This document shows, one piece after another, positions 3,813-28,260 of a stretch of DNA of 64,000 bases. A program made the translations under genes and the position numbers. Below the pieces are notes generated by a model, which did no database searches, was not told where the DNA came from, and saw nothing but the letters and a program-made list of their open reading frames with translations. This stretch comes from Candidatus Caldarchaeum sp. (GTDB taxonomy: Archaea > Thermoproteota > Nitrososphaeria_A > Caldarchaeales > Caldarchaeaceae). Each line of letters starts with the position of its first letter. Position 1 is the stretch's first letter. Where the stretch lies: the NCBI GenBank assembly GCA_038844785.1, contig JAWBRA010000009.1:3295-67294 (forward strand), written 5' to 3'.

Positions 3813-4708
3813 GCTTCAACCACCCTTCTGAGCCTTAAACGGTTGCGGTAAAGCAATGTGACGGCTATAGCCACGTATGGGATGAGCGGTTTATACGCCG
3901 TCTCGACGCCGAAGCCTCTGTTCAAAACCCACATACCCATGTTCTCCGCAAACCCTATGACAAACCCTCCGGCAAGCGTTAGGGGGAAGCTGGTTAGGCC
4001 GCCTATTATCGAGGCGGAGAAAACCCACAGCAGCATGCGCCATCCGGACTCGGGGTTTATTGCGGTATAGTATGCCCAAAGGGCTCCTGAAACACCGGCA
4101 AGGAAGCCTGTGAGCAGCCTAGTGAACTTTCTGACACGCCAGACCGGTATCCCGCTGCTGACTGCAAGGTCTCTGTTGCTGGCGACTGCCCGCATAGCTT
4201 TGCCGATTTTTGTTCTGAAGCTGGTGTATGTGAGGATGGTGACGCTGGCTAGAAGTGTCGCTAGGGCTAGGGCGTGGAGACGGGTCAGCGGCCTAGCTCC
4301 AAGATATATCAGGGGGAAGTCCTTGAAACCGGATGAGAGGAAGAGAAGGTCTTCTATGTCTGCGAAGATGGAGAAAGTGTAGCGGATTAGAAGGCTGGCT
4401 CCGATGCTTGCTATGAAGACCTGCAGCAAGGTGGCTCCCCTTAGCTCAAGCCTTTTGTAACCCAGCTCGTCCACTAGAATAGAGATAAGAGAAGCGCCCG
4501 CCCCAGCTAAGAACATCGAACCTATCGGGTCAAATCCCTGCAGTGTTGAAAGGGCTGCTATGTAACATCCTATGGTGATGTATTCGCCTACAGCGAAGTC
4601 GGCTATTTTCGTAACAGAGTAGTTCAGCGTCAGCCCAACCGCAGCCATGGCGTACAGCGATGAAGCCAGGAGTGATATAGGGAGCTGTGCCAAAGCCTCC
4701 TCTATCAT
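3809..4708 (-). CDS. livH: Branched-chain amino acid ABC transporter permease (LivH-like)
   Basis: 299 aa polytopic membrane protein in the position of livH within the operon. Confidence 0.75.
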   Translation of the reverse strand: MIEEALAQLPISLLASSLYAMAAVGLTLNYSVTKIADFAVGEYITIGCYIAALSTLQGFDPIGSMFLAGAGASLISILVDELGYKRLELRGATLLQVFIASIGASLLIRYTFSIFADIEDLLFLSSGFKDFPLIYLGARPLTRLHALALATLLASVTILTYTSFRTKIGKAMRAVASNRDLAVSSGIPVWRVRKFTRLLTGFLAGVSGALWAYYTAINPESGWRMLLWVFSASIIGGLTSFPLTLAGGFVIGFAENMGMWVLNRGFGVETAYKPLIPYVAIAVTLLYRNRLRLRRVVEA

Positions 4709-23393: not shown

Positions 23394-24002
23394 TCAAATG
23401 CCGAACAGCTTTTTAGCTTTTCCAAGCAGGCCTCCCCCCTCTCCCTCCGATGGATTGTTCGCGGTCTTACCCCCAGACTCTGCAACAATCTGGCGGATGT
23501 CAAACGTGGCCAACGCATGGAGAGTGCTTTCAAGCAGCTTTGTCCTATGTACTCCTATAGAAACTGGGAGGGAGACAACCTTGCCCTCTTTGGAGATTTG
23601 GAAAACCTTGAAATCTAGTGATGAAATTTCTCGGGTTCTTGCGTAGTTTACGGGGTCTATAACCAACGCAACCGCTTTCGGATACATGAGCTGATACCTT
23701 TTTTGAGTGTCTATGTCTGTAGGGGATAGGAAAACGTCCAGCCCAGGATGTGAATGGTACCAGCCAACTATGTAAAGTCCTTTGCCTTCTTGTGCCAACT
23801 GTTCAGCTACACGTGACATCACAGATTCATCGAGTTGGACGTAGGCAGGCGTCCCATACTGCTCGCCCGTCATAGCATCCCATATCTCTAAAACCTTGCC
23901 AGCCGACTTGCCGACCAAAAGGCCAGCCACCTCCTTGTTCAAATTTGCGGTTGAATGCTTAACTATCTTGGCGAGGGCTAGGGGGTATATCCTTACACGC
24001 AT
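23394..24002 (-). CDS. JAMM/MPN+ metalloprotease, Rpn11-like deubiquitinase / pro-ubiquitin processing peptidase
   Basis: 202 aa with the complete JAMM motif: a Glu in EVAGLLVGK, then GWYHSHPGLDVFLSPTD (H-x-H-x7-S-x2-D). Divergent from the Ub-E2-E1-RING operon. Confidence 0.85.
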   Translation of the reverse strand: MRVRIYPLALAKIVKHSTANLNKEVAGLLVGKSAGKVLEIWDAMTGEQYGTPAYVQLDESVMSRVAEQLAQEGKGLYIVGWYHSHPGLDVFLSPTDIDTQKRYQLMYPKAVALVIDPVNYARTREISSLDFKVFQISKEGKVVSLPVSIGVHRTKLLESTLHALATFDIRQIVAESGGKTANNPSEGEGGGLLGKAKKLFGI

Positions 24003-24119
24003 TGGGTAAACAATGGATAAAGGTCAATAATAAGAATGACTTGACATAGGTAGCCTACGCCTCTTTGAATGTTATCGAGATACCTCTCCGGCCGTTTCGG
24101 TGTTTTACACATGGTTAAA

Positions 24120-24129
24120 CCTTATATAC
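24120..24129 (+). promoter_or_regulatory. TATA box (CTTATATA) for Ub-E2-E1-RING operon, leaderless
   Basis: Lies about 25-30 nt upstream of the ATG at 24153, which supports the internal Met (MKIKIV..) as the true start. Confidence 0.45.
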
Positions 24130-24152: not shown

Positions 24153-24416
24153 ATGAAGATAAAGATTGTTCCCGCAGTTGGTGGAGGTACACCCTTGGAG
24201 CTTGAGGTTTCACCCAACGCGACAGTTGGTGCTGTCAGGACTAAGGTGTGTGCTATAAAGAAGCTTCCCCCCGACACTACTAGGTTGACATACAAAGGGA
24301 GGGCTTTGAAAGATACTGAAACCCTACAAAGCATAGGGGTGTCTGACGGTGATAAATTTGTGTTGATAACTAGGACGGTGGGGGGAGTTGGAAAACCTTT
24401 ACGTGGAGCTGCCTGA
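24153..24416 (+). CDS. Ubiquitin-like beta-grasp protein precursor (Gly-Gly followed by 9-aa C-terminal extension)
   Basis: 87 aa from MKIKIV. The mature 78 residues end ..LITRTVGG, and VGKPLRGAA follows. It carries a ubiquitin-like hydrophobic patch and LTYKGRALKD, comparable to ubiquitin's LIFAGKQLED. The maximal ORF starts at 24069, but the TATA position favours 24153. Confidence 0.8.
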   Translation: MKIKIVPAVGGGTPLELEVSPNATVGAVRTKVCAIKKLPPDTTRLTYKGRALKDTETLQSIGVSDGDKFVLITRTVGGVGKPLRGAA

Positions 24417-24894
24417 GACCGCGTGGTACAAACGTCTGGCGCTCGAGTATTCGTTGATGCAGGAGCATGAGCCTACGTTCAACCCTGTGGAAAACGACCT
24501 CACCCACTACGAGGGCGTAATAATAGGAACAAACATGTATGAAGGCGGGTACTTTAGGGTAGAGATACTTCTCCCACGGTCGTATCCTTTTTATCCACCT
24601 GACGTTGTTTGGCATACTCGTATCTGGCATCCTAACTTTTCCGACAGCGTGCCAGCCCGTGTGTGTGAGTCCGTGTTTAAAGACCATTGGTCGCCGTCTC
24701 TAAGGCTTGTAGCCGTGATAGAGTCTCTTCGAAACCTTTTGAACAACCCAAACCCGGAAGACCCCCTGAACCCTGTGGCGGCGTTCGAGTACAAGAACAG
24801 GCCGGACCTTTTCATGGCTAGAGTTAGACAGTTTATAGAAGAATATGCAACACCTGAGCAGGCGTTTAAACAAAGCAAGCGAAAGGGGCTCTAG
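24388..24894 (+). CDS. Ubiquitin-conjugating enzyme E2 (UBC fold)
   Basis: 168 aa with the HPN motif (WHPNF) and active-site context ARVCESVFKDHWSPSLRL (compare canonical C..L...W.P). The start overlaps the Ub precursor tail by 29 nt. Confidence 0.85.
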   Translation: MENLYVELPETAWYKRLALEYSLMQEHEPTFNPVENDLTHYEGVIIGTNMYEGGYFRVEILLPRSYPFYPPDVVWHTRIWHPNFSDSVPARVCESVFKDHWSPSLRLVAVIESLRNLLNNPNPEDPLNPVAAFEYKNRPDLFMARVRQFIEEYATPEQAFKQSKRKGL

Positions 24895-24896
24895 GT

Positions 24897-26087
24897 TTGG
24901 GTGAAAGCCCCACGCTAGCCAGATACGATAGACAGCTAAGGCTTGATGGATGGGACCAGTACAAGCTGATGTCCGCAAAAGTTGTGATCGCCGGAGTTGG
25001 TGCTCTTGGATGTGAGGCGGCTAAAAACCTGGCTCTGATGGGTGTTGGTGAACTTTTGCTTGTTGATAATGATGTGGTGGAACTGTCTAACCTAAGCCGT
25101 CAGATGTTGTACATGGATGAGGATGTTGGAAAGCCGAAGGCCTTGGTTGCTGAGGACCGCGTTAAAAAAATGAACCCGTCGATCAACGTTGTTGGCCTGC
25201 AGATGGATGTGCGTCAAATTCCCGAGGAGGTTTTCGCGAAGGCTGATGTTCTGGTAAGCTGTGTTGACAACTGGCCTACTAGGAGGTGGATAAACTCTAT
25301 GGCCGTTGAGGTGGGTAAACCGTTAGTAGACATTGCCACAGACGCATACTATGGAAATGTTCAAGTAGTCGTCCCAGGGAAGACGGCATGCATTGAATGT
25401 CATGCTGAGGCCTTGATTCCAACTGAGGTTCAGGCTGCAGAATGTTCTCTTAGGCGGAGAAAGCCGGAGGATTTGATTGCCGAACTCTATGAAAAGGGAA
25501 TATCTTTGGACCGACAGGAGGCTGAAGAGCTTTTCCGACATAATATTAAAACGCTTTATGACATCAAGTATGCTCCGCAAAGACTCGTAGACTCTCTGGA
25601 TGAAAATGTAAGAAGCCTTGTTTTAAGACTTCGTGGTCTTTTAAACCCTAAGATGCCTGCGCTCCAAAGCGTTTCCGCAACCATTGCAGGGTTGGGTGTT
25701 TTCGAAACAGTTAGGATACTGCATAAAGGGCTTCTTGGAAAGCCTTTCAGCGGTTTGTTTATGTACGACGGTCTCAGGGGAAGGTTGACGAAGGTGCAGC
25801 TTGACAGGAACATGTTATGTCACGTGTGCAGCGTGGACGAAGAACAGCCCATAGAGCTGGAGATATCAAACAAGGAAAAAGTTGCCGACATACGGGAGAG
25901 AATCGCCAACAAGTTCATGTTCCCCGACGCACGGATACAGTTTGGTGCGAAGCTTCTCGACGACTCTGCTGAGGTTAGGGAAATCGGCTTAACGGACCGG
26001 GACATCCTGTACGTACACTCGACGAGAAGGGCTACGCCTCTAGCTTTACGGGTGAAAATCCTTGAAGATAGTGATCAAAGAGGTTAA
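24897..26087 (+). CDS. Ubiquitin-activating enzyme E1-like (ThiF/MoeB/UBA fold) with C-terminal ubiquitin-fold domain
   Basis: 396 aa with a Rossmann motif (GVGALGCEAAKNL...LLVDND). Two CxxC pairs (CIEC and CHVC) are as in MoeB/ThiF zinc sites, and there is a candidate catalytic Cys in AAECS. The C-terminal roughly 90 aa are beta-grasp-like. It begins 2 nt after the E2 stop. Confidence 0.85.
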   Translation: MGESPTLARYDRQLRLDGWDQYKLMSAKVVIAGVGALGCEAAKNLALMGVGELLLVDNDVVELSNLSRQMLYMDEDVGKPKALVAEDRVKKMNPSINVVGLQMDVRQIPEEVFAKADVLVSCVDNWPTRRWINSMAVEVGKPLVDIATDAYYGNVQVVVPGKTACIECHAEALIPTEVQAAECSLRRRKPEDLIAELYEKGISLDRQEAEELFRHNIKTLYDIKYAPQRLVDSLDENVRSLVLRLRGLLNPKMPALQSVSATIAGLGVFETVRILHKGLLGKPFSGLFMYDGLRGRLTKVQLDRNMLCHVCSVDEEQPIELEISNKEKVADIRERIANKFMFPDARIQFGAKLLDDSAEVREIGLTDRDILYVHSTRRATPLALRVKILEDSDQRG

Positions 26088-26292
26088 CGCAGGGTTCTGG
26101 AACCCTTTCGAAGATGAGGATAGAACGAAGCAGAAGCTTAATTTCTGCGTTATCTGCGGGCTTGAAATTTCAAACGAAAAAACATATTCATGCCCCCACT
26201 GTGGTTCTGTGGGGCATATGTCATGTTTTGACGACTGGCTGCTGATAAGAAAGTCATGCCCGCTGTGCAGGAGGCCTATAGCGGAGGGATGA
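26062..26292 (+). CDS. Small RING-type (C4HC3) zinc finger protein, putative E3
   Basis: 76 aa with C-x2-C-x11-C-x2-C-x4-H-x2-C-x10-C-x2-C (CVIC..CPHC..H..C..CPLC), plus a Trp in the last loop as in RING E2-binding surfaces. Overlaps the E1 3' end by 26 nt. Confidence 0.8.
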   Translation: MKIVIKEVNAGFWNPFEDEDRTKQKLNFCVICGLEISNEKTYSCPHCGSVGHMSCFDDWLLIRKSCPLCRRPIAEG

Positions 26293-27570: not shown

Positions 27571-28260
27571 ATGGTGGTGTCTGAGCAGCGGCTTCTGATA
27601 AGGTTTTTTAAGCTAGGGTCGTTGCTTGCACTGGTAGGCAGCATACATATTCTCACGCTTCTTCTCCCGTGGTATGTGGTGAGGGCCGACACTGTTTCCA
27701 GAACTATTGTCAGCGGGTATCTCCTGCTTGAGACGCTTCTTCTGTCGGTCATGGGAGGGGTTTTGGCAGGCGTGTCCCTCCTTGCCACATCATTCTCGAC
27801 TAGGGCAGGGGTTGTCAGAATTGTGTTGTCGGTTCTAGCTATTCTGGGAGGGGTTTTAGCCTTGTTCTCCCCGATATACTTAAACCTCATCATAATACCG
27901 CGTCTCAACGTCGCAGGAGAGCCAGACCTTGGTTTTTTCGCATCTCTTTTCTCAGCAGTTGCTCTAATTGCGCTCGGCCTTATAGTGGTTTTAACAAGGC
28001 CTCAGAAAGTTGAGCTACCCTACCCCGGCTACTACGGGATGTCAGAGATCACAACACCTTCGGCGCCGGCTGAGCAGACAACGATGGAGCCTGTGGACAC
28101 GGTTGACGAGGGGGTTGTTTGTCCAATATGCTACACGACGGTTACGGCGGAAAACGCTGTCAAATGCTCCTCCTGCGGCGTAGTCTTCCACTCGGGCTGC
28201 GCCGACGCATACGTCAACATCAACGGAACATGTCCAAACTGCGGCCGAGCAGTTGTTTAA
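27571..28260 (+). CDS. Membrane-anchored (4 TM) protein with C-terminal C4HC3 RING-like zinc finger; paralog of the small RING E3
   Basis: 229 aa with four hydrophobic helices in the first about 150 aa, then a soluble linker. The C-terminus is C-x2-C-x11-C-x2-C-x4-H-x2-C-x9-C-x2-C (CPIC..CSSC..H..C..CPNC), the same spacing as the small RING protein at 26062. Confidence 0.7.
   Translation: MVVSEQRLLIRFFKLGSLLALVGSIHILTLLLPWYVVRADTVSRTIVSGYLLLETLLLSVMGGVLAGVSLLATSFSTRAGVVRIVLSVLAILGGVLALFSPIYLNLIIIPRLNVAGEPDLGFFASLFSAVALIALGLIVVLTRPQKVELPYPGYYGMSEITTPSAPAEQTTMEPVDTVDEGVVCPICYTTVTAENAVKCSSCGVVFHSGCADAYVNINGTCPNCGRAVV

Follow-up and report, generated by a model that had tools for sequence, protein, structure and literature searches.

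INTRODUCTION

The archaeal ubiquitylation operon was first described in Caldiarchaeum subterraneum by Nunoura et al. (2011; PMC3082918), who noted nine residues past the Gly-Gly of ubiquitin (Ub) and described the genes as 'partially overlapped'. The C. subterraneum locus consists of the genes for CsRpn11 (CSUB_C1473), CsUb (CSUB_C1474), E2 (C1475), E1 (C1476) and the small RING finger protein srfp (C1477), with PDB entries 2MQJ, 6FJ7, 6FJU and 6FNN. Hennell James et al. (2017; PMC5654768) demonstrated that recombinant Rpn11 takes off the nine-residue pro-peptide CGEPIRRAA, as confirmed by MS/MS, the peptide VLITRTVGG being detected only once the precursor had been cut. In that study E1 did not act on full-length pro-Ub, but it activated Ub that had been cleaved or truncated at GG, which then passed along E1, E2 and RING (PMC5654768). 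Fuchs et al. (2018; PMC6043591) showed by MS that CsRpn11 cuts precisely after Gly-Gly (Gly78), that the EDTA-treated apo-enzyme is inactive and that cleavage of conjugates is blocked by EDTA. The same authors solved the structures of CsUb, CsRpn11 and their complex, in which Gly78 lies at the active site (6FNN), and scanned residues 77–81: C79E and G80W block cleavage, C79G and E81W speed it, and Gly80 of the tail has to remain small (PMC6043591). The evidence for CsUb cleavage consists of SDS-PAGE and MS (PMC5654768; PMC6043591). Established between 2011 and 2018, this system is the best-studied prokaryotic model for the ancestor of eukaryotic ubiquitylation.

Two other groups of modifiers are comparable. 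The eukaryotic precursors of Ub and ubiquitin-like proteins (UBLs) include polyubiquitin with its terminal extra residue, Ub–ribosomal protein fusions, and NEDD8 and SUMO with their C-terminal propeptides; in these, too, the Gly-Gly is internal and has to be exposed by a protease ahead of activation by E1. The eukaryotic proteases are mostly cysteine-protease deubiquitinases (DUBs) or ULPs and the genes are monocistronic, whereas at the locus studied here the protease is a free JAMM metalloprotease and the extension is an out-of-frame read-through of the next cistron. Modifiers of the SAMP/MoaD/ThiS type share the beta-grasp fold, the C-terminal Gly-Gly, some precursors and processing by a JAMM protease, but SAMPs are without an E2 or RING partner, whereas the Ub gene studied here is adjoined by E2 and RING genes. 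CsRpn11 leaves SAMP precursors uncut and CsJAMM leaves the CsUb precursor uncut (PMC6043591).

RESULTS

The locus is orthologous to the C. subterraneum operon

The window, which is the whole 64-kb stretch of DNA analysed in this study, belongs to a species of Caldarchaeum (order Caldarchaeales, formerly Aigarchaeota) and carries a ubiquitylation operon of eukaryote-like type. On the reverse strand, positions 23394–24002 encode an Rpn11-like JAMM metalloprotease of 202 aa (Pfam JAB, PF01398, 2.6e-21). Its ORF contains the motif HSHPGLDVFLSPTD and the upstream Glu of EVAG, and the metal site E...HxH...S..D is intact. Its top match among solved structures is PDB 6FJU (1.2e-101, residues 1–201 aligned), the entry title of which is '26S proteasome regulatory subunit N11-like protein'. 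The JAMM gene is divergent from the Ub operon, with an intergenic region of 150 nt.

On the forward strand, mature Ub of 78 aa (MKIKIVPAVGGG...LITRTVGG) is encoded at 24153–24386, an assignment that draws on the translation, the Pfam match (PF00240, 1.5e-12, above the gathering score), identity to CsUb and the conserved N-terminus. The Ub protein matched the solved structures 2MQJ (88 aa; residues 1–87), 6FJ7, 6FNN/6FNO and 5ZEW with E values of 1e-43 to 1e-48; the PDB matches of both the Ub and the JAMM proteins are C. subterraneum proteins, and mature Ub is 92% identical to the CsUb constructs (PDB 6FJ7/6FNN/2MQJ). When Ub was compared with Pfam at E ≤ 0.01, the matches were ubiquitin, Rad60-SLD and, weakly, the UBAC1 UBL, with no ThiS or MoaD family.

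Immediately 3' of Ub lies the E2 (UBC) gene (24388–24894, forward strand; 168 aa, TTG start; UQ_con, PF00179, 2.6e-30), in the translation of which the HPN motif (IWHPNF) and the catalytic Cys (RVCES) are visible. The E1 (ThiF/UBA-type) gene follows at 24897–26087 on the same strand (396 aa; ThiF, PF00899, 6.3e-59). The C-terminus of E1 (aa 318–375; 25848–26021) gave a weak Pfam ubiquitin match (E 1.3e-3, below the gathering score), in keeping with the report by Hennell James et al. (2017) of a UBL domain at the C-terminus of the C. subterraneum enzyme. An E3-like protein of 76 aa, the small RING finger protein srfp (zf-RING_2, PF13639, 2.3e-9), is encoded at 26062–26292, forward strand; if its start is TTG 26062, the first 26 nt of its ORF (26062–26087) also belong, in another frame, to the 3' end of the E1 gene, and the operon would hold a second overlap of this kind. 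For all five genes, the Pfam families (JAB, ubiquitin, UQ_con, ThiF and RING) scored above the gathering thresholds. Positions 27571–28260 on the forward strand encode another RING protein, hydrophobic in its N-terminal half and with the RING at its C-terminus (zf-RING_2, 1.4e-8, aa 184–224), which corresponds to the 'second E3' mentioned as adjoining the operon in the introduction of Fuchs et al. (2018; PMC6043591).

The window and C. subterraneum have in common the gene order and orientation, the 87-aa precursor, the 78-aa mature form ending in TVGG, a 9-aa propeptide, an E2 start one base past the Gly78 codon and a near-full-length JAMM match. The propeptide is VGKPLRGAA in the window and CGEPIRRAA in C. 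subterraneum, placing Val rather than Cys at P1'; the window is thus not the reference genome. It comes from another species and its E2 start codon is TTG, but there is no difference in kind. Among the 59 species-level GTDB loci compared below, the closest representative was Candidatus Caldarchaeum sp. MAG QQ_201709_bins_146, with identities of 98% for Ub, 98% for E2, 95% for E1 and 96% for JAMM.

The finding is a rediscovery of a published system that has been characterised structurally and biochemically. The original prediction named the divergent JAMM protein as the enzyme cutting after Gly-Gly, which the experiments on the orthologues CsUb and CsRpn11 support by analogy, given the 92% identity of mature Ub. 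Cleavage exactly after Gly78 and activation of the product by E1 hold for the C. subterraneum orthologue and are applied to the window on that basis. Likewise, the MS of the termini and the JAMM incubations with and without EDTA that had been proposed have already been carried out on the 92%-identical orthologue.

Precursor, tail and overlap with E2

The Ub reading frame runs from ATG 24153 to TGA 24414–24416 and encodes 87 aa. Gly77-Gly78 end at 24386, the mature C-terminus TVGG occupying aa 75–78, and are followed by the nine-codon propeptide VGKPLRGAA and the TGA stop (24387–24416, forward strand; tail codons 24387–24413). The E2 ORF opens in the +1 frame at TTG 24388, one base past the Gly78 codon. 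Ub and E2 consequently share 24388–24416, that is, 29 nt made up of 26 nt of tail codons and the Ub stop, the latter being an out-of-frame CC-TGA-G within the Pro9-Glu10 codons of E2. The precursor with a nine-residue tail past an internal Gly-Gly had thus been placed accurately to the base. Published work likewise takes an 87-aa precursor as the product, in support of a start at the internal Met.

Ub start codon and promoter

An upstream in-frame ATG occurs at 24069, and the ORF is open from there. Translation from this codon would give a 115-aa product from a leadered transcript, with the TATA match upstream of 24153 being fortuitous. Some gene callers do extend homologues upstream (P0001, P0015 and P0019), and the TATA octamer alone had one match in the window against 0.75 expected by chance, which is not significant in a single sequence. 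However, in an alignment of 27 homologues the N-terminus MKI[KR][IV][VI]PAVGGG was common to all sequences, whereas the upstream extensions made by gene callers were unrelated in both sequence and length. Moreover, the stretch that would encode the extension contains the TATA box, whose sequence and distance from the ATG are the same in 14 Caldarchaeum-group loci, and the 87-aa form folds and functions (PMC6043591; PMC5654768). The long N-terminal form was rejected on account of the unrelated extensions and the conserved TATA box within them, and we regard it as very improbable.

The promoter of the preferred start, ATG 24153, consists of a BRE-like TTAAACC and the TATA box CTTATATA (24115–24128, forward strand), the latter at 24121–24128, corresponding to −32 to −25 from the Ub ATG. 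As its occurrence in one sequence could be due to chance, the case for the TATA box rests on conservation: TTAAACCTTATATA is invariant at an equal distance from the ATG in the 14 Caldarchaeum-group loci, with variable flanks, and TTAA(A/T)CCTTATATA is likewise invariant upstream of the Ub ATG in these loci, with variable neighbouring bases. In archaeal promoters, the TATA box is centred about 26–27 nt ahead of the transcription start site, and about 26–29 nt ahead of a leaderless start codon. The TATA box in the window is centred about 26–29 nt 5' of the Ub ATG, with no Shine–Dalgarno (SD) sequence between them, and by the usual archaeal TATA geometry the Ub transcript would carry no leader or one of up to about 3 nt. 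The TATA box about 30 nt upstream of the internal Met, one of the points in the original prediction, was thus confirmed and found to be kept in 14 loci; the start at this Met on a leaderless transcript agrees with the conservation of both the N-terminus and the TATA distance, and we infer it on those grounds.

When the starts of the 56 ORFs of at least 150 aa in the window were scanned for TATA-like octamers at −36 to −26, only four starts qualified, too few to show leaderless transcription as the rule in this genome. Outside the genus Caldarchaeum (L014, L020, L022, L033 and others), a TATA-like element lies 40–52 nt 5' of the Ub ATG, and SD-like GGAGG or GGGG motifs precede the ATG. The leaderless arrangement seems to be specific to the genus Caldarchaeum, and the same gene appears to switch between leaderless and leadered transcription between genera.

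Two further conserved elements were found in the intergenic region. The motif TTCGnTGTTTTAC (24096–24108, forward strand) lies about 7 nt 5' of the Ub promoter's BRE/TATA and does not vary across the 14 Caldarchaeum-group loci (columns 95–106 of alignment A3), although its flanks do; it may be a binding site for a regulator. An A/T-rich block with the plus-strand consensus GTAATAAAAATGAC (24026–24040, reverse strand) lies about 24–34 nt 5' of the JAMM ATG; in the intergenic alignment of the 14 loci, its columns T26, T29–A31, A33 and T35 are invariant. This block is a putative TATA box; given its distance from the JAMM ATG, the JAMM transcript is probably leaderless too, and the 150-nt region would hold two back-to-back promoters.

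E2 start codon and a putative embedded ribosome-binding site

The extent of the overlap depends on the start codon of E2. A start at the downstream GTG 24403 would reduce it to 14 nt and leave most of the tail free of constraint by E2; this codon is in frame in the window, and GTG also stands at the homologous position in L001, L002, L004 and L010. However, the codon at that position (GG+17) is GTC, GTA or GCT in L003, L005–L009 and L011. In contrast, the position homologous to TTG 24388 (GG+2) is ATG in seven close relatives (L004–L006 and L008–L011) and TTG or GTG in the others, and it is the only nearby in-frame candidate in L005, L007, L008 and L013. The published primer for functional recombinant CsE2 (ATG-GAG-AGC-CAA-TAC-GT...) likewise begins at the GG+2 equivalent and yields MESQYVELPE (PMC5654768). 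In addition, a GGTG is placed 7 nt ahead of GG+2. GTG 24403 was rejected as the start on these comparative grounds and on the published construct, and we consider it very improbable. Relatives and the published primer keep the GG+2 start, whereas conservation is lacking at GTG 24403; the 29-nt overlap of the tail region with the E2 ORF in another frame is therefore real, as had been claimed.

The GGTG (24377–24380, forward strand) is an SD-like core formed by the Thr75 and Val76 codons (ACG GTG), exactly 7 nt 5' of the E2 start at TTG 24388. The SD assignment relies on a generic archaeal anti-SD: GGTG falls within the sequence complementary to the 16S 3' end (GGAGGTGATC). An Rfam scan of the whole window at the gathering threshold returned a single tRNA (10568–10631) and no 16S gene. 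The codons ACG GTG are frozen in the Caldarchaeum-group loci L001–L013, L015, L016, L018 and L021, whereas six neighbouring codons vary synonymously. In Calditenuaceae, E2 starts at GG+6 and the Gly77-Gly78 codons are GGT GGN, which places a GGTG again 7 nt ahead of the start. The pattern of GGTG at 7 nt was read post hoc from printed sequences, and automatic scoring of the longest SD match did not settle on one motif, choosing GGAG at spacing 0 in the window, for example. The GGTG inside the Ub Thr-Val codons is a putative embedded ribosome-binding site of E2, and as such offers a possible reason for E2 hugging the Gly-Gly codons of Ub.

In two Terraquivivens loci (L017 and L019, tikiterensis/ruidianensis; 4234–4300), the E2 frame is intact, but from the in-frame stop upstream of it as far as GG+63 it offers none of the codons ATG, GTG and TTG. 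All six Terraquivivens loci (L017, L019, L025, L030, L032 and L042) have an in-frame CTG-GAR where Caldarchaeum has ATG-GAR, with GGTG 6–7 nt upstream (GGAGGTG in L017). Because this CTG-GAR lies in frame behind GGTG, and the usual start codons are missing from L017 and L019, CUG is a candidate initiation codon for E2 in Terraquivivens; the alternatives are a +1 shift past an out-of-frame GTG, or a Ub–E2 fusion through frameshifting.

The tail across Caldarchaeales

The genes for Ub, E2, E1, JAMM and RING were placed by tblastn in 59 species-level Caldarchaeales loci, and the junctions were read. The order Ub-E2-E1-RING holds in the loci carrying all genes. The tail could be an adaptive regulatory propeptide that keeps Ub inert until Rpn11 licenses it, the overlap with E2 being secondary. 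Such a role would accord with the finding that pro-Ub cannot be activated by E1 (PMC5654768), with the effect of tail residues on the cleavage rate (PMC6043591), with the retention of a tail of 6–9 aa throughout the Caldarchaeum clade and with the fact that eukaryotic Ub and UBLs are likewise made as precursors. However, across the 59 loci the tail ranged from 0 to 20 aa and neither its sequence nor its length was conserved. The stop directly follows GG in 24 of the 59 loci, in which the JAMM neighbour is retained, and four loci have 1–4 extra residues. The tail has 5–20 residues in 30 loci, in all of which the Ub frame enters E2-homologous codons; in the remaining locus, L020, 13 residues are followed by a spacer of roughly 420 nt before E2.

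Tails are essentially absent where Ub and E2 do not overlap. Loci with E2 set apart from Ub, by 2–5 nt in Calditenuaceae or by 56–140 nt in Wolframiiraptor, among others, have tails of 0–4 aa, with L020 as the sole exception. In a neighbour-joining tree of E2 and E1, the tail/overlap and no-tail/no-overlap states switch together in at least four places (clades). Furthermore, tailed genes take their Ub stop from E2 codons, as a TGA read out of frame: CC-TGA-R, from the Pro-Glu of the conserved ELPE, or, in the variants with a 6-residue tail, GC-TGA-G, from Ala-Glu of E2. Terraquivivens uses CCC for the Pro, and with the TGA thereby lost its tail extends to 10–20 residues. Synonymous codon choice in E2 thus alters tail length, which also speaks against a regulatory propeptide.

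The substitution pattern tracks the E2 frame as well. In a small sample of 27 nt from 12 related Caldarchaeum sequences, the variable sites of the overlap were 7 of 9 E2 third positions (tail first positions), 4 of 9 tail third positions and 2 of 9 in the remaining class. The E2-only region downstream shows a matching pattern (8 of 11 at third positions), and in the Ub-only region upstream, 18 of 20 third positions of the Ub frame were variable. Most of the constraint appears to be imposed by E2 on the tail. The tail Gly80 is dictated by ATG-GAR of E2, and L010 has a natural Asp at P1'.

The original prediction held that the two gene ends cannot evolve independently; across the 59 species, the presence and length of the tail and its stop codon all follow the 5' coding sequence of E2. 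The further claim that the Gly-Gly must be exposed by proteolysis applies to this genus but does not extend to the whole system, as about 40% of the related species do without the tail.

In L020 (4235–4690), about 420 nt are inserted between Ub and E2, and the 13-aa Ub tail is unrelated. Insertions of about 2 kb and 0.9 kb separate E2 from E1 in L017 (4740–6760) and L019 (4740–5620), respectively. In L048 (3321–4240; Aigarchaeota archaeon SKYB10), a Ub ending in GG-R adjoins the JAMM gene, and no E2 or E1 was found within 4 kb downstream of Ub.

DISCUSSION

We propose a scenario for the locus that combines the promoter, pro-Ub, JAMM cleavage, the embedded E2 start and the tail as a by-product, and that as a whole is highly likely to be the best explanation. 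A BRE/TATA promoter about 28 nt 5' of ATG 24153 would drive transcription of Ub as the first cistron, leaderless or nearly so, and the transcript would yield the 87-aa pro-ubiquitin. By analogy with the orthologue, the divergent Rpn11-like JAMM protease would cut exactly after Gly78 and free the nonapeptide, and the exposed Gly-Gly carboxylate would then undergo adenylation by E1, thioester formation with E2 and RING-stimulated conjugation. E2 would be translated from TTG 24388 by means of the GGTG inside the Ub Thr-Val codons. The E2 start may have been pulled against the Gly-Gly codons of Ub, possibly as these G-rich codons give E2 an SD at a fixed spacing of 7 nt. With no stop between the genes, Ub would read on to the out-of-frame TGA in the Glu-Leu-Pro-Glu (ELPE) codons of E2, so that the nine tail codons are the Ub frame through the first nine codons of E2. 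The comparative data suggest that the tail is a by-product of gene compaction, tolerated since the DUB strips anything small on Gly78.

Because tails of at least 5 aa overlap E2, the stop comes from E2 codons and the substitutions follow the E2 frame, the propeptide is probably a tolerated by-product of overprinting rather than a conserved regulatory device. We hold this reading with some preference, and consider a propeptide selected for regulation doubtful. Nevertheless, the tail is not fully neutral but is under at least steric selection, as C79E and G80W block cleavage (Fuchs et al., 2018).

The window itself adds only another orthologue to the known system. What is new here is the comparative by-product argument. 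This argument was not found in the literature searched, the coverage of which was incomplete, and the word 'overlap' is absent from the main texts of the 2017 and 2018 papers (PMC5654768; PMC6043591).

As the tail is tied to the Ub/E2 overlap, owes its length to the codons of E2 and is missing from about 40% of species, it seems to have come and gone repeatedly within Caldarchaeales as a consequence of operon compaction. The conserved job of the JAMM protein is more likely deubiquitylation. The comparative result is of modest value where pro-Ub processing is cited as an ancestral 'eukaryotic' trait: if it is true, precursor processing by Rpn11 in archaea would be a secondary use of a deubiquitinase, which arose and was lost several times within one order.
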